The notes under the pieces are model-generated. The model worked only from the letters and a program-made list of their open reading frames with translations. It was not told the DNA's origin and searched no databases. A DNA stretch of 64,000 nucleotides from an uncultured bacterium (GTDB lineage: Bacteria; Verrucomicrobiota; Kiritimatiellia; RFP12; UBA1067), in NCBI GenBank assembly GCA_902770045.1, contig CACXRO010000014.1, forward strand, positions 27,516 through 91,515. Reading direction: 5' to 3'. Made by a program: the position numbers and the translations under genes. How positions within the stretch are numbered: position 1 is the first letter of the stretch; every line of letters starts with the position of its first letter. Shown here piece after piece: positions 5,347 through 54,651 of this stretch.

Positions 5347-5882
5347 AACACCTCGCTTTCGATAGTCCGCAATATAGACTCCTTTTTGGGGAACACATCA
5401 AGATAGTCCGTTAGCTTCGCGGGATAGAGCGTGTCCCTTATCCGGCGGAAGGACTCAATGACCTCCTTGTAGAGGTCATAAGGTAGCTTTGTCTTGTTTC
5501 TTGCCGTCTCTATAAGCAGTCTTTCCTTGTCGAAGATACGCGAAACATCGTCGTTCAAGAACTTATGGGAAACGACGCCAATCCCCACCGTCCCCTTGGG
5601 CAGAAAGTGCTGTACGACCCGCTCATCATAAATCTTCGCCGCGTCCCTATCCGTTGCAAGATGGAGCGCTTCTGGAACTGAATCAGAAAGGTCATAGTAA
5701 AAATATGCGCTTTGCAGCGTCACAACCGCGTTGGGATATCTAGCCAGCATGACTTCGACTTCCGACCATTCCGCCTGATCACTATAGAGGCCCAAGGCGA
5801 CCTTATGCAGTTCGCCATTGCGTATCAGAAGTTCTGCCCGATACCGTCCGCCGTATTTCTCACAGCATTCTGAGAAACTCAT
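5343..5882 (-). CDS. AbiEi-family antitoxin / transcriptional regulator
   Basis: The N-terminus ...LIRNGELHKVALGLYSD is typical of the AbiEi_4 wHTH. There is a 4-nt overlap with the toxin gene. The track start 5888 is a GTG, and I prefer ATG 5882 (MSFSECC). Confidence 0.55.
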   Translation of the reverse strand: MSFSECCEKYGGRYRAELLIRNGELHKVALGLYSDQAEWSEVEVMLARYPNAVVTLQSAYFYYDLSDSVPEALHLATDRDAAKIYDERVVQHFLPKGTVGIGVVSHKFLNDDVSRIFDKERLLIETARNKTKLPYDLYKEVIESFRRIRDTLYPAKLTDYLDVFPKKESILRTIESEVF

Positions 5883-15056: not shown

Positions 15057-15887
15057 CTAGAATCCCCAGTAGCCGAGCATCTTGGCGATGAAGCCCTTCA
15101 TCTCCTTGCGCTCGACGATCTTGTCGATGAAGCCGTGCTTCTCCAGGTACTCGGCGCTCTGGAAGTCGTCCGGCAGCTTCTGGTGGATGGTGTTCTCGAT
15201 CACCCTGCGCCCGGCGAATCCGATGAGCGCCCTGGGCTCGGTTATGTTGATGTCGCCGAGCATCGCGAACGAGGCGGAGACGCCGCCGGTGGTGGGATCG
15301 GTGAGCACCGAGATGTAGGGGAGCCCCGCCTCCTTGAGCTTCGCGATCGCGGCGGAGGTCTTGGCCATCTGCATGAGCGAGAGGATGCCCTCCTGCATCC
15401 GCGCGCCGCCGGAGGCGCAGAAGAGGACGAGCGGCAGCCGCTCCGCGACGGCGCGCTCGCAGGCGCGGGCGATGCGCTCGCCGGTACCGGTGCCGAGCGA
15501 CCCGCCCATGAACGCGAAGTCCATCACCCCGAGCATCGCGGGATGGCCGTCGATGCGGCAGACGCCCATCACCACCGACTCCCTCTCGCCGCTCTTGGCG
15601 ATCGCGGCCTCGACCTTGTCGCGGTAGGAGCCGGACGCGTCGCGGAACTCGAGGTGGTCTGAGTAGCTGACCTCGCGGAACACCTCGCTGAAAGAGCCTT
15701 CGTCGGCGACGAGCGCGATGCGCGCGCGCACCGGCAGCCGGCCGTGGTAGTTGCACTTGGGGCAGATGCCGCCGGCCTTCTTCCAGGCGGCCTTGCCGAA
15801 GTGGCTCTTGCACTTCGGGCACACCGCCCAGACCGCCTTCTCCGGCGGGATTGCGGGCTTCTCGGTCTTGGGGACGAACCAGGACAT
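15057..15887 (-). CDS. accD: acetyl-CoA carboxylase carboxyltransferase beta subunit (Zn-ribbon N-terminus)
   Basis: CPKCKSH...CPKCNYH is followed by MGGSLG and SGGARMQEG motifs. Confidence 0.85.
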   Translation of the reverse strand: MSWFVPKTEKPAIPPEKAVWAVCPKCKSHFGKAAWKKAGGICPKCNYHGRLPVRARIALVADEGSFSEVFREVSYSDHLEFRDASGSYRDKVEAAIAKSGERESVVMGVCRIDGHPAMLGVMDFAFMGGSLGTGTGERIARACERAVAERLPLVLFCASGGARMQEGILSLMQMAKTSAAIAKLKEAGLPYISVLTDPTTGGVSASFAMLGDINITEPRALIGFAGRRVIENTIHQKLPDDFQSAEYLEKHGFIDKIVERKEMKGFIAKMLGYWGF

Positions 15888-15909
15888 CGCATTCCTCCTT
15901 GGGTTTAGA

Positions 15910-16200
15910 TCAGCTTTCGGCTCCCTCGACGATCTTGGGGAGCAGGAACTCGTCGCCGGTGCGCGCCGGCGCGTTGGCGAGCGCGGTCTCGGCGGGGAGC
16001 GACTCCCCGACCACGTCCTCGCGGAAGACGTTGACGAGCTCGCGCCCGTGCATCATCGGCGGGACGCCCTCGACGTCGACGGAAGAGATCTTGTCCACGT
16101 ACTCGACGATGCTCTCGAGCTGCGGCTGGAAAGTCGCCTTCTCCTCCTCGGTGAGCTCCAGCCGCGCGAGCTCGGCGACGTAGGAAACGTCGATCTTCAT
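15910..16200 (-). CDS. gatC: Asp/Glu-tRNA amidotransferase subunit C
   Basis: MKIDVSYVAELARLELTEEEKATFQPQLESIVEYVDKI... I prefer ATG 16200 (GAGGGAG upstream) over the track's GTG 16206. Confidence 0.8.
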   Translation of the reverse strand: MKIDVSYVAELARLELTEEEKATFQPQLESIVEYVDKISSVDVEGVPPMMHGRELVNVFREDVVGESLPAETALANAPARTGDEFLLPKIVEGAES

Positions 16201-16210
16201 CGCCACTCCC

Positions 16211-17359
16211 TCAGCGCTGCCACACCGGCGAGATGAAGTTGCCGCTCGCGCCGAAGAGCTGGCGGGGCTTGTCGCCGTCCTTGAGCGTGTCGATTATGAA
16301 CAGCGCCTTGTCGCGGCTGGCGACGAGGTGGCGCATGTCGCGCGACCAGGACGGGTGCTCCCAGTTGCCCTCGGGGGTGACGAGCTCCGCCGAAACGTCG
16401 CCCTCGGCCGGGCTCATCACGGCGATCTGCGCGCCGCCGCGCTTGGTGATGTAGGCGATGCGGCCGTCGGGGCCCCAGTCGGGGTCGACGTTCTCGCGCC
16501 CCTTGGAGGTCAGCCGTCGCTTCGCCTTCGTCGCGACGTCGACGACGAAGATCTGCGGGTTGCGGGCCTCGTTGGAGACGTAGGCGATCTTCTTGCCGTC
16601 CGGGCTCCACGCTGGCTGGCCCTCGCTCGCGAGCGGGGTGTTGGTGAGCCGGACGAAGCGGTCGCCGGAGATGACGTAGAGCTCGGGGTTGCCGTGCACG
16701 GTGAGGATCGCCGCGACCTTGGTGCCGTCGGGCGAGACCGCGATCCCGTCCGGCGAGCCCTTGAGGCTCCACTTCTGGCGGCGCGTGCCGGTGGCGGTGT
16801 CGAGCTCCCACACCTGCGGCGAGCCCTTGAGGTCGCTGATGTACATCACCGAGTCGCGGTCCTTCCAGCGCTGGAAGATCGTCATGCGCCCGTCGCCGGT
16901 GAGCTGCTTCACGTCGTAGCCGTCGGGGTAGCTGACGCACATCTCGCTCGGCCGCACCTGGCCGCGGCCGGCGGACTTGCCGCGGTTGAGGAAGAGCACC
17001 CGGTCGAGCGCGAAGCCCTTCTGGTTGCCGAACGCCTCGCACATCGCGTCGGCGAAGCGGCGCGCGGCCATGCGGGCGGACTTGTCGTCGGAGAACGCCT
17101 CGGCCGAAGAGACCACCTTGCCGCGGCCCTCGGCCTTCATCGCGCCGGACGCCCCGCTCACCTTGATCGTGCCGTCGCCGCGGACGGTGAAGAGCCCCGA
17201 GATCTCGAGGTTCTTCGCCAGGCACTTCGAGTACGCGCCGTTGGCGACCTGGATCGACACCGTGAACTTCTGGGCGCCGACGCCGGAGATGTTGACGACC
17301 GTCTCCGCCGACGCGGCGAGAGCAAGGGCCATTGCGGCCAGGGAGATAATTCTTTTCAT
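16211..17359 (-). CDS. TolB-like periplasmic beta-propeller protein (PD40 repeats)
   Basis: The signal peptide is MKRIISLAAMALALAASAE. Repeated SPDG/WSPDG motifs occur. The track ORF (to 17623) is an artefactual extension through the heptamer array. Confidence 0.7.
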   Translation of the reverse strand: MKRIISLAAMALALAASAETVVNISGVGAQKFTVSIQVANGAYSKCLAKNLEISGLFTVRGDGTIKVSGASGAMKAEGRGKVVSSAEAFSDDKSARMAARRFADAMCEAFGNQKGFALDRVLFLNRGKSAGRGQVRPSEMCVSYPDGYDVKQLTGDGRMTIFQRWKDRDSVMYISDLKGSPQVWELDTATGTRRQKWSLKGSPDGIAVSPDGTKVAAILTVHGNPELYVISGDRFVRLTNTPLASEGQPAWSPDGKKIAYVSNEARNPQIFVVDVATKAKRRLTSKGRENVDPDWGPDGRIAYITKRGGAQIAVMSPAEGDVSAELVTPEGNWEHPSWSRDMRHLVASRDKALFIIDTLKDGDKPRQLFGASGNFISPVWQR

Positions 17360-17366
17360 GATGCGT

Positions 17367-17375
17367 ATTATACCA
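17367..17375 (-). promoter_or_regulatory. extended -10 TGGTATAAT, 7 nt from the ATG (leaderless configuration)
   Basis: Minus strand reads gcgaataTGGTATAATACGCATCATG, with the ATG at 17359. Confidence 0.6.
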
Positions 17376-17382
17376 TATTCGC

Positions 17383-17462
17383 GGTTCGTGGTTCGTGGTT
17401 CGTGGTTCGTGGTTCGTGGGTCGTGGGTCGTGGTTCGTGGTTCGTGGTTCGTGGTTCGTGGG
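17383..17462. repeat. heptanucleotide tandem array, 11 units of GGTTCGT (minus-sense ACGAACC), two of them GGGTCGT variants
   Basis: Counted unit by unit from 17383 to 17459, plus a partial unit. The array fills the gap between stop codon 17463-17465 and the promoter motif. Confidence 0.95.
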
Positions 17463-20400
17463 TTAGGGGAGGACCTGGCCGTCGGCGACGAGGCGGCGGC
17501 GGAGATCCGCGTAGGGGACGTCCTGCACCGCGACGCCCTTCTCGACCGCGACCGCCGCGGCGGTGCCGGCGGCCTGGCCGAGCGCGAAGAACACCGGCTC
17601 CATCCGGATCGACCCGAACGCAACGTGGCTCGCCGAAAGGCTCACGGGGACGAGCAGGTTCGTGCATTCGCCGCGCTTGGGGACGATTGCCCCGTAGTCG
17701 ATTCCATACGGCACCATCGCGCCCTTAAGCCCGGCGCCGCGCGAGTCCTCGAAGTTGCCCTCGTTTCGCACGAAGCCGTCCGCGGTCTCGACCCGGCGCA
17801 CGTGGTGGGAGTCCATCGTGTAGGCGGCCATCGCCACGGGACGGGAAACCGTCTTCTCGCCGCGGCAGTGGCTCTCCGTCATCACCGTCTCGCCCACCAT
17901 GCGCCGGCCCTCGCGGACGTAGAGCTGGCTCTGCCAGCCGTCGCCTGGTCCGTCCGTGAACTCGTCGCGGCACGTTCCCCACTTGGAGAAATACTCCCTC
18001 ACGCGCTTTGGAATCCGCTTATGGTTCGCAAGCGTCCACATGAGCCCGCGCTGGTAGTCGAGATGCGCCTTGAAGATCTCCTCGCGCCGCGCGTAAGACG
18101 CCTCCGGCCATTCGTGGTTCATGCCGATGAAGTCGCTCGAGAAGGCGGTGCGGTTGTTGGAGTCGGTCTTGCCGTCGGGCATGCGCGACATGATGAGCGG
18201 CACGAAGTCCCTGCCGCTTCTCCATGGCCGCGTACTCGCGGAAGAGCAGCTCGTACGCGCGCTCGTCGTAGCCTTCCGGACGCTTGAACGGGATGCGGTT
18301 CTCGGGGACGTCCGTAAGGCACATCCGGAAGCAGTACGCCTGCATGCGCCCATCGCCGTCGCCTGGCTTTTCCGCGGCGTTGTACGGCTCCACCCCGGGG
18401 AGCAGACCAGAGCTCCGGTCGCCCTCGACGACATACGGCGAGACTCCGGCGTGGAAGTTGTGGTGCCGCGAGCCGCAGGCGTCCGGCGCAATGCCGTTCA
18501 GCGTCTCGCCGTAGACGGAGTTGGCCTCGCGCCCGACGGCGTACTTCACTCCGGCGGCAGCCATCAGGTCGCCTTCGTAGGTTGCGTCGACGAACATTCT
18601 GCCGCGGTAGGTGCGCCCGGAGAGCGTGGTGACGGCGACGATGCTCGCGCCGCGCTTCTCCACTCCCCTTTCGCGGTCAAGCCGCTCTCCGCGGCGGATG
18701 TCGAGGCCGTCGCGTTTCTCCCAGCCCTCGAGGATCGCAAGCGCCGCGGAAGGCTCGAACGTCCACATCGAGCCGCCGGACTTGGAGCCGGCGCACTGTC
18801 CGTCGGGGAAATAATCCTCGGACTTCTGCCACTTCCAGTGCGAGGGGTCGGAGTACCACTTCGCGACATCGCGGTAGAACTCGAGGGCGATGCCGCCGAA
18901 AGCGGACTTGTTGCCGATGTCCGTCTGGCCGAGGCCGCCGGTGGTGAGTCCGCCGATGCGCGTCTCGGGCGAGACGACCACCGCCTTGAGCCCCATGCGT
19001 TTCGCCTGCACCGCGGCGGAAATCGCCGCCGGACTGCTTCCGTAGACCACCAGGTCGAAATCCTCCTCCGACGGCCAGCGCAGCAGGTCGGCCTCGCCGA
19101 CCGGAATGTCTTCGGGCAGCGCGCCCCAGTCGGCGACGCCGTCTCCGCAGAGGACGTCCACACTGCCCTTCGCCGCGGCGGCCACCCACTCCGGCGGCGG
19201 CGCGGCGAAGCGGCAGCCGAGGTAGAGCGCCTCGCCGGCGACGTCCTTCACGGCCTTGCGCGTGCGAGCGAAGTACTCGCCGAGCAGATAGTCGGTGAGC
19301 CCGCAGAGCTCCTGCTCCGAAAGCTGGTCGGGACCCTTCGCCGCGTCGTACTTCCGTCCGTCCGCGGCAAGCCGCTTCAGGAGCGCGCGCCGGGCGGGCT
19401 GGTCGGCCGGCGCGGCGAGCGCGCGCCTCGCGAGCTCGGCGTGGGTCGCGCCGAAGTCGACGTCGCGGTCGACGACGAGTCCGAGGCACCAGGGGCTGTG
19501 CGGCAGCGGACGGCGTCCGGCGAAGTCCCAGGTGACGCACTGCCCGAAGGTCGGGTCGAACGGGTCGCGCATCGCGCGCGGCGACTTCCAGAGCGGGCGC
19601 GACTCGGCGTTCACGTAGGCGACAAACGGGGTGGGGCGCGCCGGCGCGGCGGGGCAGGGGCGGGCGGACGAGGCGAGGTCGCGGAAGAGGCGGCCGTCGG
19701 GGTCGACGATCCACCAGGAGCCGCCGCGGCGCTCGACGCGGAAGCGCCCGGTCGCCGCGAGCTGCGGTCCCCGCAGCTGGCCGCCCCACTGGTCGATTCC
19801 GGCGGCCTCGTCGGTGCGGGCGCCGCGCCGCAGCGTCCACGAAGGCTGGTTCACGCCGTAGCCGCAGCCGTGGCCGACGCCCTGGGAATAGCGCAACTTC
19901 ACCGGTCCGCGGAGGTTGCGGAAGAGGATCATCTGTCCCGACGGCGGACAGACGTAGTCGGCGAGGCCGAAGTTGACGTTGACCGGGCAGGTGACGCGCA
20001 TCGCGAGGTTGACACCGTCCACATAGGCGAGCTCCGGCGTCCAGAGCGGAAACCAGCCGCCGATCCTGCCTAGGACCGGATGTCCGGCGAGGTCGCACAT
20101 CCAGGCGAAGTCGGGCGAGCAGCGCGAGACGTCAGGATCCAGCGCGGCGAGCGCGATCGAGCGGTAGCCGCCCATCGAACCGCCGCCGACGGTGAGCGTG
20201 CGTCCGTCCCACTGCTCCAGGGTCTTGGCGTAGGCGACCGCCCGGACGTCGCGCAGCAGCATGAGGAACAACTCGTTGGAGGTCTTCGCGCCGGTGTTGC
20301 GCCAGCAGTAGCCCTGCATCACGTTGGTCCAGAGGTTCTCGTGGTAGGCGGAGTCGGCGAGCGGGTCTTCGCCGTAGCGGGTGATGTGGAGGCGGATCGC

Positions 20401-21087
20401 GCCGCCGTCGCGCAGCACGGACTTCTCGTCGATGCGTCCGCGGCCGTAGCCGTAGCCGGGCACGTCGACGCGGATCGGCAGCGACTTCGCCGCCGCCGCG
20501 CGCGGCCACGCGATCAGTCCCGTGGCCGGTCCGAGTGAGGGGATGAGGTTGACCGAGAAGGCGTTGACGACGACGTTGGTGTCCTTGGACGCGACCGGGG
20601 TGAGCACGGGGCTCATCGGCACGGATTTAAGCCGCGCGAGCTCGAGGTCCCAGAACGCGTTGAAGTCGTCCGGCGCAGGCTTCGCCGGGATGCGCTCCGC
20701 GTCCGCGGCAGCGCTGGAGTCGAAGATGTCCGAGCCCGGGACCTGCCTTCCGTCCTCGTCGACGGCGCGAACGACGAGGTGGACGAAGCCGGGCGCGTCG
20801 AGCTTCGCCTTGACGACGAGCGGCTGGTCGGAGGACGCTTCGCCGGCGCGGCGGCTGCCGTCGTCGCCTTCGAGCGTCCAAGCGACGCGGCGGCCCGGGA
20901 CCGGCGCGTTCTTGGCGCTGCGGTCGACGAGCGTGACCGTGAAAACCATCTCCTCGCCGCAGGCGTAGGAGAGCGGGTCGCGGTCGGTGACGCCGTGGAA
21001 CGAGAGCGACTCGGCGGCGGAGGCGCCGAGCGCCGCGGCGAGCGCAAGCGCGCAGGCGAGCGGGCGGACAGTGCGGGTTGGGTTCAT
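17463..21087 (-). pseudogene. secreted three-domain protein (AXE1/CE7-like esterase, unknown middle domain, FAD-dependent oxidoreductase), frameshifted near 18213-18219 (or a sequencing error)
   Basis: The start MNPTRTVRPLACALALAAALGASA is ATG 21087, with AAGGAG upstream and an ATGA overlap with xseA. The nucleophile elbow is GGGSMGG and the FAD motif is DLVVYGSSPAAISAAVQAKRMG. The reading frame switches between ...LLFREYAAMEK and GRDFVPLIMSRMPDGKTDSNN. Confidence 0.6.
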
Positions 21088-22310
21088 TTCTCTCCTTTCG
21101 CGGTCGCGGACACGACCGAGACGGCTTCGCCGCGGGCGAAGCGGGTCCTGATTTCGTCGCCCCGCTTCAGCGCCGAGGCGTCGCGCACCGCCGAGCCGTC
21201 CGGCCCGGTGACGATCGCGTAGCCGCGCTCGAGCACTCCGTAGGGCGAATACGCCTCGAGCTTCGCCTGGGCCTTCTCGAGCCGCGCGGCGGCGGACTGA
21301 ATAGCGAGCGACTTCGCCGCGTCGAGTCGCGGCACGGCGCGCTCGAGCCGGCGCTCGGCCTTCGCGAGCGCGGCCGCCAACGCGGCGGCGAGCGAGTCGC
21401 CGAGGTGGTCGAGTCGCTGCGCGGTGACGTCGCCCCGGCTCTGGAGCGTGGCGGCCAGCTTGGACGCGAGAGCGTTCACGCGCTCGAGCAGATCCGCGCG
21501 CACCGGCACGGCGATCTCCGCGGCAATCGAGGGCGTGCCGGCGCGCCGGTCGGCGGCGAAGTCGCAGAGGGTGAAGTCGGTCTCGTGGCCGACGGCGCTG
21601 ATGACCGGAATCGCGGAGGCGGCGACGGCGCGGACGAGCGACTCGTCGTTGAAGCAGAAGAGGTCCTCGAAGCTGCCACCGCCGCGCGCGACGATGACGA
21701 GGTCGGCCCGCCAGTCCGGGCAGGAGTTGAAGTACTCGAGGCCGGCGACGATCCGCGGCGGCGCGTCCGCGCCCTGCACGAGGCAGGGGAAGAGCCTGAT
21801 TTCCAGCGCCGGGAAGCGCCGCGTCAGCACGGTGCACATGTCGTGCACCACCGCGCCTGCCTCGCTGGTGACGAGCCCGATGCGCCGCGGCAACGGCGGC
21901 AGCGGACGCTTCTTCGCGGGATCGAAGAGCCCTTCCTGCTCGAGCTTCGCCTTGAGCGCGAGGTAGCGCTGCATCAGCTCGCCGACGCCGGCGAGCCGGG
22001 CGCTGAGGACGTTGAGCTGGTAGTTGCCGCGCGGCGGATAGACGGTGAGGCTGCAGTAGAGGGCGACCTTGGCGCCGTCCTTGAGCTCGTCCCGCGCAGC
22101 GCAGCGCTGGAAGGCGGAGGCGAACATCACCGCCGCGATCTGCGCGCCCTCGTCCTTTACCGTGAAATAGCGGTGGCCGGAGGCGGCCGGGCGCCAGCCG
22201 CTGATCTCGCCTTCGACGATGATGCGCGACCAGCCGCGCTCCAGCGCGCCCTTGACCGCCGCGGTGAGCGAGGTCACGGTGAAGTGCGGGTATTTCGACT
22301 CCTCCGCCAC
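21084..22310 (-). CDS. xseA: exodeoxyribonuclease VII large subunit
   Basis: An OB-fold N-terminus (...TVTSLTAAVKGALE...VEGEISGW) is followed by ...VVARGGGSFEDLFCFNDE. The start codon is GTG. Confidence 0.85.
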   Translation of the reverse strand: MAEESKYPHFTVTSLTAAVKGALERGWSRIIVEGEISGWRPAASGHRYFTVKDEGAQIAAVMFASAFQRCAARDELKDGAKVALYCSLTVYPPRGNYQLNVLSARLAGVGELMQRYLALKAKLEQEGLFDPAKKRPLPPLPRRIGLVTSEAGAVVHDMCTVLTRRFPALEIRLFPCLVQGADAPPRIVAGLEYFNSCPDWRADLVIVARGGGSFEDLFCFNDESLVRAVAASAIPVISAVGHETDFTLCDFAADRRAGTPSIAAEIAVPVRADLLERVNALASKLAATLQSRGDVTAQRLDHLGDSLAAALAAALAKAERRLERAVPRLDAAKSLAIQSAAARLEKAQAKLEAYSPYGVLERGYAIVTGPDGSAVRDASALKRGDEIRTRFARGEAVSVVSATAKGEK

Positions 22311-29030: not shown

Positions 29031-29870
29031 CTATTGTCGTGGCATCTCGTTGATAACCTGCTTGAGGTGCTCGACCTCGTCCTCGGTGACGACGTCGTCC
29101 GCCAAGATGGCCTTGAGCTCGCCGCGCACCTTGCCGAGGAACTCGCCGAGGCGCCCCTGGTGCTCCTGGCCGAAGATCTCCGCCGGGGTGCCCTCGTTGG
29201 CGATGCGCCCGCCCTCGAGGAAGAGGACGCGGCTCGCGACGTCGCGCGCGAAGCGCATCTCGTGGGTGACTACGACCATGGTCATGCCGTTCCGGGCCAG
29301 GTCCTTCATGACGTCGAGAACCTCGCCGACCATCTCCGGGTCGAGCGCGGAAGTGGGCTCGTCGAAGAGCATCACCTTCGGCTCCATCGCGAGCGAGCGC
29401 ACGATCGCGACGCGCTGCTTCTGGCCGCCGGAGAGCTGCTGCGGGTACGCCTTTGCCTTCTCCGCGAGGCCGACGACCTCGAGGAGCTCCATCGCCTTCT
29501 TCTCGGCCTGTTCCCGCGGCAGGCGGCGGACGAGCCGCGGCGCGAGGGTGATGTTGTCGAGGATGGTGAGGTGGGGGAAGAGGTTGAAGTGCTGGAACAC
29601 CATGCCCATCTCGGAGCGGACGCGGTTCTTGGTCTTCTCGTCTGCGCTGACGATGTCGATGCCGTCGAAGATGATCGAGCCCTCGGTCGGCTGCTCGAGG
29701 AGGTTCATGCAGCGGAGGAAGGTGGACTTGCCGCCGCCGGACGGGCCGATCATCACCACGACCTCGCCCTTGCGGATCTCGGTGGAGATGCCCTTGAGCA
29801 CCTCCAGCTTCCCGAAGCACTTCTTCAGGTTCTCTATCTTAAGCAGTGTTTCGCCCATCTTCTTCACCAT
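29031..29870 (-). CDS. amino-acid ABC transporter ATP-binding protein (GlnQ-like) with a short C-terminal extension
   Basis: [20 protein letters not shown] and [10 protein letters not shown] motifs are present. Confidence 0.85.
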
Positions 29871-29878
29871 TGGCGTGT

Positions 29879-29887
29879 ATTATACCA
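29879..29887 (-). promoter_or_regulatory. extended -10 TGGTATAAT, 8 nt from the ATG (leaderless configuration)
   Basis: Minus strand reads agaataTGGTATAATACACGCCAATG, with the ATG at 29870. Confidence 0.6.
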
Positions 29888-29891
29888 TATT

Positions 29892-29919
29892 CTTCGTGGT
29901 TCGTGGCTCGTGATTCGTC
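29892..29919. repeat. heptanucleotide tandem array, 4 units of NTTCGTG (minus-sense CACGAAN)
   Basis: Units are cttcgtg gttcgtg gctcgtg attcgtc. The last unit overlaps the dprA stop codon. Confidence 0.8.
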
Positions 29920-39824: not shown

Positions 39825-39887
39825 CTGGCTGCTGACCACTGGTTGTTGGCTACTGGCTGCTGGTTACTGGTTGCTGGCTGCTGGTTA
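39825..39887. repeat. heptanucleotide tandem array, 9 units of CTGGYTR (minus-sense CAGCCAG/TAACCAG)
   Basis: Units are ctggctg ctgacca ctggttg ttggcta ctggctg ctggtta ctggttg ctggctg ctggtta. Confidence 0.9.
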
Positions 39888-52720: not shown

Positions 52721-53620
52721 CTACTTCACCTCGCGACGGCGCGGCACCGAGCTCTGGGCACCGGGCCGGGTCACGGAAATCGCCGACGCCTTCTGGGCGA
52801 AGGCAATCGCGTCCCGGCACGACTTCCCCTCCGCGAGCGCCACCACGAACGCGCCGTTGAAGGTGTCGCCGGCGGCGACGCAGTCCACGGCCTTCACCTT
52901 CTTCGCGGGATAGAGCCGCCGGCAGTTGCCGCAGTAGACGCCCTTCGCGCCCATGGTGATCGCGACGTTCTTCACGCCCTTGCGCTTCAGCGCGTCGACC
53001 GCGAGCTGCGCGCTCTTCGCGTCCTTCACCTTCACCCCGGTGAGCAGCTCCGCCTCGGTCTCGTTCGGGGTGATCCAGTCGATGAGCGGATAGAGCTCCT
53101 TCGGGAGCTTCGCCGCCGGCGCCGGGTTGAGCACCACCATCACGCCGGCCGCCTTCGCCGCCTTCGCCGCGGCGAGCACGGTGGGAATGGGCGTCTCGAG
53201 CTGCATCAGGAGCGCGGCCGCGCCCTTGAGGTCCTTCAGCCGCGGCTTCACGTCCGCCGGCGACAAGGTGCCGTTCGCGCCCAGCGCCACCGAAATCACG
53301 TTCTGCCCCTTCGCGTCGACCAGGATGAGCGCGGTGCCGCTCGGGTTCTTCCGGTCCACGACGAGCCGCGCGTCGATGCCCTCGGCGCGGAAGCGCGCAG
53401 CCGCGTCGCGCCCGAAGAGGTCGTCGCCGACCTTGGCGACGAAGACGCACTCGCCGCGCTTCGCCGCCAGCCTCGCCACCGCGACGGCCTGGTTGGCGCC
53501 CTTGCCGCCCGGGTTCATCATGAACTTGCCGCCGCTGATGGTCTCGCCCGGCGCCGGCAGCTTCCGGTCGGCGATCACCATGTCGGTGTTGGTCGAGCCA
53601 AGCACGAATATCTTCTTCAC
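52721..53620 (-). CDS. rbsK: ribokinase
   Basis: GTG 53620 is preceded by AGGAGG. The sequence reads (M)KKIFVLGSTNTDMV...GGKGANQAVA...DCVAAGDTFNGA. The track ORF to 54385 is an extension. Confidence 0.8.
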   Translation of the reverse strand: MKKIFVLGSTNTDMVIADRKLPAPGETISGGKFMMNPGGKGANQAVAVARLAAKRGECVFVAKVGDDLFGRDAAARFRAEGIDARLVVDRKNPSGTALILVDAKGQNVISVALGANGTLSPADVKPRLKDLKGAAALLMQLETPIPTVLAAAKAAKAAGVMVVLNPAPAAKLPKELYPLIDWITPNETEAELLTGVKVKDAKSAQLAVDALKRKGVKNVAITMGAKGVYCGNCRRLYPAKKVKAVDCVAAGDTFNGAFVVALAEGKSCRDAIAFAQKASAISVTRPGAQSSVPRRREVK

Positions 53621-54651
53621 TTTCCGAACCTCCTTACGATTTCCTCGTATTCCGCGGCCTGAGCCTCCATGGACTCCACCATCTTCAGCTGGGTGCGGCA
53701 CCGGACGAGGTTGTGGTCGTCGTAGGCGGTGTGGAAATAGGTGTCGCCGGCGAGGTAGTCGGTGAGGAAGCGGATGCCGATCGTAAGCGTGATCAGCCGG
53801 CCGGAGAACGCCAGGTTCTCCCGCTCCGCCTCGGTGAGAAACTTCGCCTTCGGCAGGTAGCCGGCGACGAGCGCCTCGAAGTACTCCTTCTTCGAGTACA
53901 CCTTGGAGAGGTCCTTCTCGTCCTCCGCCGCCGCGGCGGACGAGGTGCGCACCATGTCGCCGAAGTCGTACAGCGCCGAGCCGGGCATGGTGGTGTCGAG
54001 GTCGATGACGACCGTCGAGCCGTCCGGCGCCATCATCACGTTGTTGATCTTGGTGTCGTTGTGGGTGATGCGCTCGGGGATCTCGCCCGCGGCCATCATC
54101 TTCACGATCTTCGCCGCCTCGCCGCGGCGCGCGTCGATGAACGCAAGCTCCTTCGCGACCGAGGCGCGGCGCCCCTTCACGTCCGCGGCGGCGGCTTCGT
54201 CCAGGAGCCGCAGGCGGTCCACGGTGTCGTGGAAACGCGGGATCACCGCCTTGAGCGGCGGCGCGGGCAGGTCGGCGAGGTCGTTCTGGAACGACGCGAA
54301 CGCGCCGGCCGCGATTGCCGCGTCCTTGGGGTCGGTGATGAGGTCGACCGAGGCGTAGCCCTCGAGGAAGCGGTAGACCCGCCACGGGTTCTCGTAGCCG
54401 ACGACCTCGAGCGTCTTCACGCCCTTGGCCTTCAGGTGGGCGGTCACGCGCAGGATGTTCTCCTTGAGGACGTCCTTGTCGAAGATGTCGGTGACGCGCT
54501 GGAGGATGTACCGCGTCCCGCCGGCGGTCTCGACCTTGAAGGTGTCGTTGATGTGCCCCGAGCCGTAGCGCGAGACGTCGGTAGCGTCGTTGATGCCGAA
54601 GCCGGCGAGCGCCGACCTGAGCTCCTCCTGCGAGTACTGCCTGTTGGACAT
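53617..54651 (-). CDS. APH-fold sugar 1-kinase, N-acetylhexosamine 1-kinase (NahK)-like
   Basis: GSGHINDTF, ITHNDTKINNVMM, IDLDTTMPGSALYDFGD, EDEKDLSKV and HNLVRCRTQLKMVESME closely parallel Bifidobacterium NahK as I remember it. The start is ambiguous (ATG 54651, 54672 or 54702). Confidence 0.65.
   Translation of the reverse strand: MSNRQYSQEELRSALAGFGINDATDVSRYGSGHINDTFKVETAGGTRYILQRVTDIFDKDVLKENILRVTAHLKAKGVKTLEVVGYENPWRVYRFLEGYASVDLITDPKDAAIAAGAFASFQNDLADLPAPPLKAVIPRFHDTVDRLRLLDEAAAADVKGRRASVAKELAFIDARRGEAAKIVKMMAAGEIPERITHNDTKINNVMMAPDGSTVVIDLDTTMPGSALYDFGDMVRTSSAAAAEDEKDLSKVYSKKEYFEALVAGYLPKAKFLTEAERENLAFSGRLITLTIGIRFLTDYLAGDTYFHTAYDDHNLVRCRTQLKMVESMEAQAAEYEEIVRRFGK

Follow-up and report, generated by a model that had tools for sequence, protein, structure and literature searches.

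The locus considered here raises a simple question: why should the gap between the stop codon of one gene and the promoter of the next be filled by a pure run of seven-nucleotide repeats? The window (the whole 64,000-nt stretch of DNA that was analysed) lies on contig C14 of the source genome, a 2.27-Mb MAG of 87 contigs and 64.7% G+C, hereafter G000. A sequence-only reading of this window had described eleven tandem heptamers at 17383-17462. The tandem array is confirmed but the count is not: TRF and the sequence itself give 12 units, and TRF places them at 17378-17461 (minus strand), beginning five bases earlier, as a single array of period 7 with 12.0 copies, 96% matches and a score of 147. 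No longer period-7 array was found in the genome, and among the 28 arrays built from the unit CCACGAA it also ranks first in length. Read on the sense strand, it comprises four CCACGAA, two CCACGAC, five CCACGAA and one CCGCGAA unit, in agreement with the earlier description of a unit of composition C3A3G1 that lacks U and of two identical variant units in tandem, which follow the first four. The array does begin directly after the TAA stop codon of the upstream esterase/FAD-oxidoreductase frame (17463-17465, minus strand), with one C (17462) between them, and it does stop 2 nt short of a promoter motif; beyond it the sense strand continues with TA (17377-17376), TGGTATAAT (17375-17367), ACGCATC (17366-17360) and ATG (17359-17357). 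Three independent assemblies carry an array at the same site, which makes an assembly artefact unlikely.

The ATG belongs to a gene (16211-17359, minus strand) for a PD40/TolB-like beta-propeller protein with a signal peptide (PF07676 PD40, E 9.8e-21). Its mRNA is probably leaderless, since the start codon lies 7 nt past the -10 hexamer. The gene upstream of the array (17466-21087, minus strand) encodes an AXE1-esterase/FAD-oxidoreductase and is probably frameshifted in the source genome, because its FAD domain (PF12831) is split over two frames, 18019-21837 and 17466-18491. The same gene carries a ~1-kb deletion in the 98%-identical MAG SFPL01000069 (L063), and it appears to be decaying in the clade formed by G000, this MAG and the sister genome G019 (rumen assembly RUG10963). 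In most genomes of the genus, the PD40 gene sits directly behind argJ with a spacer of a few nucleotides and no promoter (orthologues L002-L020), while at L013 and L014 the argJ/PD40 junction holds arrays of other unit families; in G000, G019 and the SFPL01 MAG, a rearrangement put the esterase gene, the array and a new promoter ahead of the PD40 gene. Conservation of the array beyond the species pair is rejected by this arrangement, in which other members of the genus have argJ directly upstream or other unit families at the junction. Since these orthologues stand behind argJ with neither promoter nor CCACGAA array, the array is dispensable for the PD40 gene.

The promoter between array and gene conforms to a single dominant consensus of this lineage, rAAWTWTGGTATAATACrC, derived from 554 sites across the genome and showing a faint TTGAC at -36 to -32. 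The motif TGGTATAAT has 298 exact occurrences and 554-558 with at most one mismatch, the total varying with the contig-end cut-off. It is a real promoter, because 17 of the 39 tRNA genes have it at a distance of 11-21 nt upstream and because a start codon follows the -10 hexamer by 5-10 nt at 189 of 558 sites (about one third), with a peak at 7-8 nt; these same 189 sites suggest that leaderless mRNAs are common and a major mode of expression in the source genome. One example of a start codon close after the hexamer is the TGGTATAAT site at window positions 29870-29890. Since a TTGAC-type -35 accompanies 88 of 556 sites only (~16%), most of these promoters are extended -10 promoters without a -35. 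At the PD40 gene, the promoter (17367-17380, minus strand) was called from the lineage's own consensus alone and consists of the extended -10 motif and an AT-rich stretch at -20 to -16; the GAA of the last repeat unit coincides with the consensus rAA at -21 to -19. A scan of 15500-19500 for classical sigma-70 promoters and intrinsic terminators found none, and no TTGACA-type -35 was found at this promoter. The array was itself rejected both as a -35, with CGAACC, ACGAAC and GAACCA at 16-18 nt spacing each matching TTGACA at 2 of 6 positions, and as an A/T-rich UP element (about -40 to -60), with 57% G+C and no A/T tract longer than 2. Other members of the genus also use the TGGTATAAT promoter.

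We counted family arrays of at least three units with at most one mismatch per unit. Nineteen of the 28 are intergenic in a genome that is ~89% coding, although these figures come from a rough codon-usage gene caller and the label of any single array may be wrong. Thirteen lie 2-10 nt upstream of TGGTATAAT, all of them in the sense orientation and none antisense, and 12 of these 13 share one register in which CGAA is followed by 2-4 A/T bases and TGG (CGAA|WTWTGGTATAAT). At least one unit in register is present at 57 of the 554 promoters (~10%), and exact CCRCGA[AGT] at gaps of 2-4 nt occurs 49 times against 0.6 expected from its genome-wide frequency. The number of units per promoter falls off from one (38 promoters) through two (7), three (6) and four (4) to six and 12 (one promoter each), and the array at 17378-17461 thus marks the far end of a graded series. 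A simple reason for the fixed register would be that only arrays keeping GAA beside WTWTGG leave the promoter intact. The distance to the upstream stop varies, unlike this register. Genome-wide, periods 7 and 8 are over-represented among strong TRF arrays.

Orientation follows transcription in a similar way. Of the arrays, 15 in co-directional spacers and 8 in reading frames have CCACGAA on the sense strand, and two have it on the opposite strand; the two arrays in divergent spacers are each oriented with their own promoter, and none of the 28 arrays occupies a convergent spacer. On contig C17, a pair of back-to-back promoters shares one divergent spacer, and each of the two has a unit of its own that is oriented with it. 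The window itself holds a second, short array of the family (29893-29918, minus strand; ~3.7 units) a few nucleotides before another TGGTATAAT promoter, and an array of another heptamer family (39825-39884, minus strand; sense CAGCCAG/CAACCAG type) upstream of a third TGGTATAAT promoter, outside the strict register. The genes downstream of unit-bearing promoters have unrelated housekeeping functions. A Pfam scan of 10 of their proteins matched nine, namely a class II aminoacyl-tRNA synthetase, Lgt, a T2SS ATPase, enolase, an Mrp/NUBPL ATPase, Pth (peptidyl-tRNA hydrolase), a POTRA (BamA-like) protein, PGI and ArgC, and gave no match for the tenth. A tRNA-Arg gene also lies behind such a promoter, and the leader behind another is one that we take, from its sequence, to be TPP riboswitch-like. 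The lack of a common downstream function argues against a regulon or a contingency system.

Comparison with close relatives reveals rapid turnover of the unit. At the PD40 locus, 12 units are present in G000, 9 in G019 and 5 in SFPL01000069, with flanks that are 96-98% identical. The PD40 protein of G019 is 98% identical to that of G000, and its gene has the same stop-array-promoter layout with a different pattern of A/G variants; SFPL01000069 is 98% identical downstream of the array, and the upstream stop is TGA in the relatives and TAA in G000. Among 23 unit-bearing promoters compared between G000 and G019, 16 could be paired (flanks 92-100% identical), and 8 of these 16 differ in copy number: 3 versus 10 units at enolase, 2 versus 6, 3 versus 0 at the BamA-like gene, 4 versus 3, 4 versus 5, 12 versus 9, and two complex cases. 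Four of the other eight pairs have substitutions inside the array only and four are identical. The core promoter is unchanged in all 16 pairs. As copy number differs at half of the pairs while the core promoter stays constant, the array is hypermutable and dispensable for the presence of the promoter. The variation in unit number between strains that the sequence-only reading had suggested looking for is found, and its alternative of a slippage-prone microsatellite accords with both the three alleles at this locus and the eight differing orthologous promoters.

The pairing of unit and promoter is recent and lineage-specific: it is all but limited to G000 and G019, and the promoter motif itself occurs throughout the genus. 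The pattern CGAACCRCGAA-N(2-4)-TGGTATAAT matched 12 times in G000, 22 times in G019 and once among 119 other family genomes, and a reversed-control pattern gave no match in the same family-genome search. Of the 23 other genomes of the genus that were sampled, 22 lack the unit. The orthologous promoters of enolase, pgi and argC in five other members of the genus show the general GAA-WTWTGG consensus and not the unit, in regions of poor synteny. A 30-nt exact junction pattern had no match in a metagenome scan, and a scan of genome contigs with the junction pattern returned two relatives; a near-identical public MAG carries the label Lentisphaeraceae.

Several observations bear on how one unit sequence came to be scattered through the genome. 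A GC-rich hairpin of ~29 nt (CCGCCTACGCCAAGGCTACGGCGGGCA type) is found 17 times inside CCACGAA units (CCAC | hairpin | GGCGAA), and several copies lie between heptamer units and promoter, with sites at, for example, C37:1959, C27:3036, C21:10322, C33:38670 and C58:7212. From this placement, the hairpin looks like a small insertion element that prefers the CCACGAA repeat. Inverted CCACGAA arrays also form hairpins, as on contig C4 at 53580-53655. At three of the loci compared between G000 and G019 (3, 11 and 17), CCACGAA arrays have members of other repeat families inserted within them or next to them; at C45 ~5667-5760 (G019 L032) and C8 ~46646 (L034), AATCCTGT units lie within a CCACGAA array and GTTGAAAG lies beside CCACGAA, in one genome only. 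Since arrays of one family sit in or beside those of another in only one of the two sisters, the comparison points to block insertion besides slippage, and the difference at the BamA-like promoter (locus 18) is a block replacement rather than a unit-step change. In-situ slippage alone does not suffice, because a single unit sequence is found at 28 sites, including positions within genes, and a copying or mobile process of some sort has to be involved as well. Arrays might, as a speculation, also be spread in register by recombination that uses the almost identical promoter cores as anchors.

Taken together, we favor, with a probability of roughly 0.6, the interpretation of the array as an expanded representative of a (CCRCGAA)n repeat family that is lineage-specific, dispersed and slippage-prone and lies beside -35-less promoters; it would be near neutral or mildly tuning. 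A single CCRCGAA unit occupies about -25 to -19 of roughly one in ten promoters, its 3' GAA coinciding with the conserved rAA upstream of WTWTGGTATAAT. The unit expands and contracts quickly, probably in the main through slipped-strand mispairing with occasional block gain or loss, and this turnover gives the 0-12 copies seen at orthologous promoters. As these extended -10 promoters make no use of a -35 hexamer, the stretch from the preceding stop to -20 is unconstrained and can be filled by an array. We infer that the array has little effect, or a modest quantitative one, on transcription of the PD40 gene, and that it is not a dedicated terminator or switch. The strict register and the depletion of -35 elements (TTGAC at 1 of 57 unit-bearing promoters) would fit a promoter function of the unit just as well.

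The sequence-only reading had instead seen the hallmarks of a Rho-utilisation (rut) site. On such an account, a C-rich, G-poor and unstructured 3' UTR of ~84 nt loads Rho, ends the esterase/FAD transcript and insulates the leaderless gene behind it. The physical description stands: C makes up 43% and G 14% of the sense RNA, a CC dimer recurs every 7 nt, and the RNA is predicted to be essentially unstructured (MFE -2.5 kcal/mol, z +1.77), since 196 of 200 shuffled sequences reach an equal or better fold. Contig C17 carries a Rho gene (PF07497, 92.9 bits), and the scan described above found no intrinsic terminator between the two genes. These properties are compatible with a rut site, but the distribution of the family speaks against one as the reason for the array. 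Position is set by the downstream promoter and not by the upstream stop (12 of 13 arrays end 2-4 nt from TGG), and units occur inside reading frames and in divergent spacers, where no upstream transcript arrives, yet in no convergent spacer. Nor are arrays that run from stop to promoter C-rich in general, an idea rejected because the period-7/8 arrays of co-directional spacers include, on the sense strand, 35 with more C than G and 32 with more G than C, the GTTGAAAG family being one G-rich example. Close relatives make do with 5 or 9 units at this locus and with 0-10 at others, and the frameshift in the upstream gene means that ordinary polarity would already let Rho act further upstream. We therefore consider a dedicated rut site improbable; if the 84-nt tract loads Rho when transcribed, this would be a side effect of its composition. 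The hairpins invite a different account, in which CCACGAA arrays are the arms of a dispersed, hairpin-bearing element that spread by transposition-like insertion or promoter-anchored gene conversion. The 17 hairpins within units (several directly 5' of promoters), the inverted arrays, the intruding families at loci 3, 11 and 17, the block gain or loss at the BamA-like promoter and the lineage-restricted spread are all in its favor. The array at the PD40 locus, however, contains tandem units only and no hairpin, its alleles (12, 9 and 5 units, the A/G variants shuffled) resemble slippage products, and no transposase or nuclease was linked to it. This account, which we likewise hold to be quite unlikely, explains origin and not present function, and it overlaps with the interpretation of an expanded, slippage-prone repeat.

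CCRCGAA might be a functional upstream component of promoters that lack a -35, bound perhaps by RNA polymerase or by a factor peculiar to the lineage, with copy number heritably adjusting promoter strength. The register to the -10 is fixed, the unit goes with its own promoter where two promoters stand back to back, a TTGAC -35 is found at 1 of 57 unit-bearing promoters compared with 16% overall, and copy number is hypervariable. The -35 could also be depleted because the array takes up or displaces its position, however, and the 57% G+C of the array is unlike an A/T-rich UP element. The pairing is restricted to G000 and G019 (with one match elsewhere) while the promoter motif is genus-wide, and the BamA-like gene has the same promoter in both genomes, preceded by 3 units in one of them and by none in its sister. 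A precedent exists in the hmw1A and hmw2A promoters of nontypeable Haemophilus influenzae, which carry 9-28 7-bp repeats that vary between isolates (PMC2424069; PMC8262952) and in which an increasing repeat number correlates with decreasing transcript (PMC2424069). This is the best-documented case of heptamer copy number changing transcript level, and it shares with CCRCGAA a period-7 repeat in the promoter region whose copy number varies between strains. The hmw system, however, concerns two adhesin (contingency) genes with a measured effect on expression, whereas CCRCGAA adjoins dozens of housekeeping promoters and lies upstream of the -10 element, unlike the hmw setting. No association with surface, host-interaction or restriction-modification genes was found for CCRCGAA, whose neighbors include enolase, PGI, ArgC, Pth and Lgt. 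We regard a tunable element of this kind as doubtful. A stronger version, in which CCRCGAA is a newly evolved, clade-specific module that replaces the -35 at ~10% of extended -10 promoters, spread by core-anchored recombination and tuned by slippage, seems to us unlikely; if true, it would give dozens of housekeeping and leaderless genes a heritable, quickly reversible means of adjustment, and the genome would possess a register-locked promoter microsatellite system at large rather than a few contingency loci. An operator array for a sequence-specific transcription factor would account for one 7-nt unit at a fixed position of ~50 promoters. Regulators that bind direct repeats usually phase their sites at 10-11 bp, in contrast to the contiguous 7-bp repeats seen here. 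The downstream genes share no function, on which ground a regulon was rejected, orthologous promoters carry anything from 0 to 12 units, and 22 of 23 other sampled genomes of the genus lack the unit, making this proposal highly improbable.

The array resembles elements known from other bacteria. The likeness to cyanobacterial STRR repeats that the sequence-only reading had noted is real with respect to tandem 7-nt units, many loci, mostly non-coding positions and variable number. STRR heptanucleotide repeats were reportedly described by Mazel et al. in 1990. Their units are of the CCCCAGT, TTGGTCA and CAACAGT types and occur in heterocystous cyanobacteria; the present array is not an STRR proper, having the unit CCRCGAA and a rumen PVC bacterium as its host. 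With all four of these defining features present, CCRCGAA belongs to the broader class of dispersed bacterial heptanucleotide repeats. To our knowledge, such repeats have been known for decades from cyanobacteria, Beggiatoaceae, Xanthomonas and Geobacter without an accepted function. The class shares head-to-tail units in 2 to tens of copies, one unit sequence per lineage at many loci, mostly non-coding positions that often fall between co-directional ORFs near stops or starts, variable number, and neighboring genes without a functional pattern. Other members include the TAACTGA repeats of marine Beggiatoaceae, Cyanobacteria and Bacteroidetes, located just upstream of start codons (MacGregor 2015, PMC4679880), the G4-forming GGGNATC repeats of Xanthomonas and Nostoc, located within 50 bp of ORF ends (Rehm et al. 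2015, PMC4692102), and the GGGACCG and MTYCTGA heptamers of Geobacter metallireducens (PMC2700814). CCRCGAA differs in its unit sequence and its rumen Kiritimatiellia-type host, in having nearly half of its arrays register-locked directly 5' of an extended -10 and, relative to GGGNATC, in lacking G-tracts of three. The comparison with rut sites is of another kind: both are C-rich, G-poor and unstructured RNAs, here of ~80 nt, after a stop codon in a genome that encodes Rho, but rut sites are functionally defined and not tandem repeats, and CCACGAA follows promoters rather than transcript ends. REP/REPIN and MITE-like repeats are similarly dispersed, lineage-specific and intergenic, and the hairpin at 17 sites and the inverted arrays recall them; the present array is a pure direct tandem run without a palindrome, and no RAYT-like or other enzyme was tied to it. 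The array stands apart through its register lock to the promoter and its restriction to one species pair; it is otherwise an ordinary member of the dispersed heptamer class. One register-locked family with 0-12 copies at orthologous sites of two sister genomes provides a clean comparative set, in which the effect of copy number on transcription is directly testable. For annotators, the family is a warning that, in these genomes, a C-rich tract following a stop codon should not on its own be taken to indicate a Rho site.

Two further features accompany the repeat families of this genome. Several families of period-7/8 units show a strand bias relative to transcription, with 15 sense versus 1-2 opposite occurrences for GTTGAAAG and 15 versus 2 for AACCACCT among the contexts that were tallied, and avoidance of stop codons does not account for the bias. 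A conserved element, GCGGAGCGGTAGCGAGAGCC..ATCGGAGTTT, is present in 42 copies, often just upstream of heptamer units and promoters, on G000 contigs C1, C3, C5, C7, C8, C10, C13, C20 and others.
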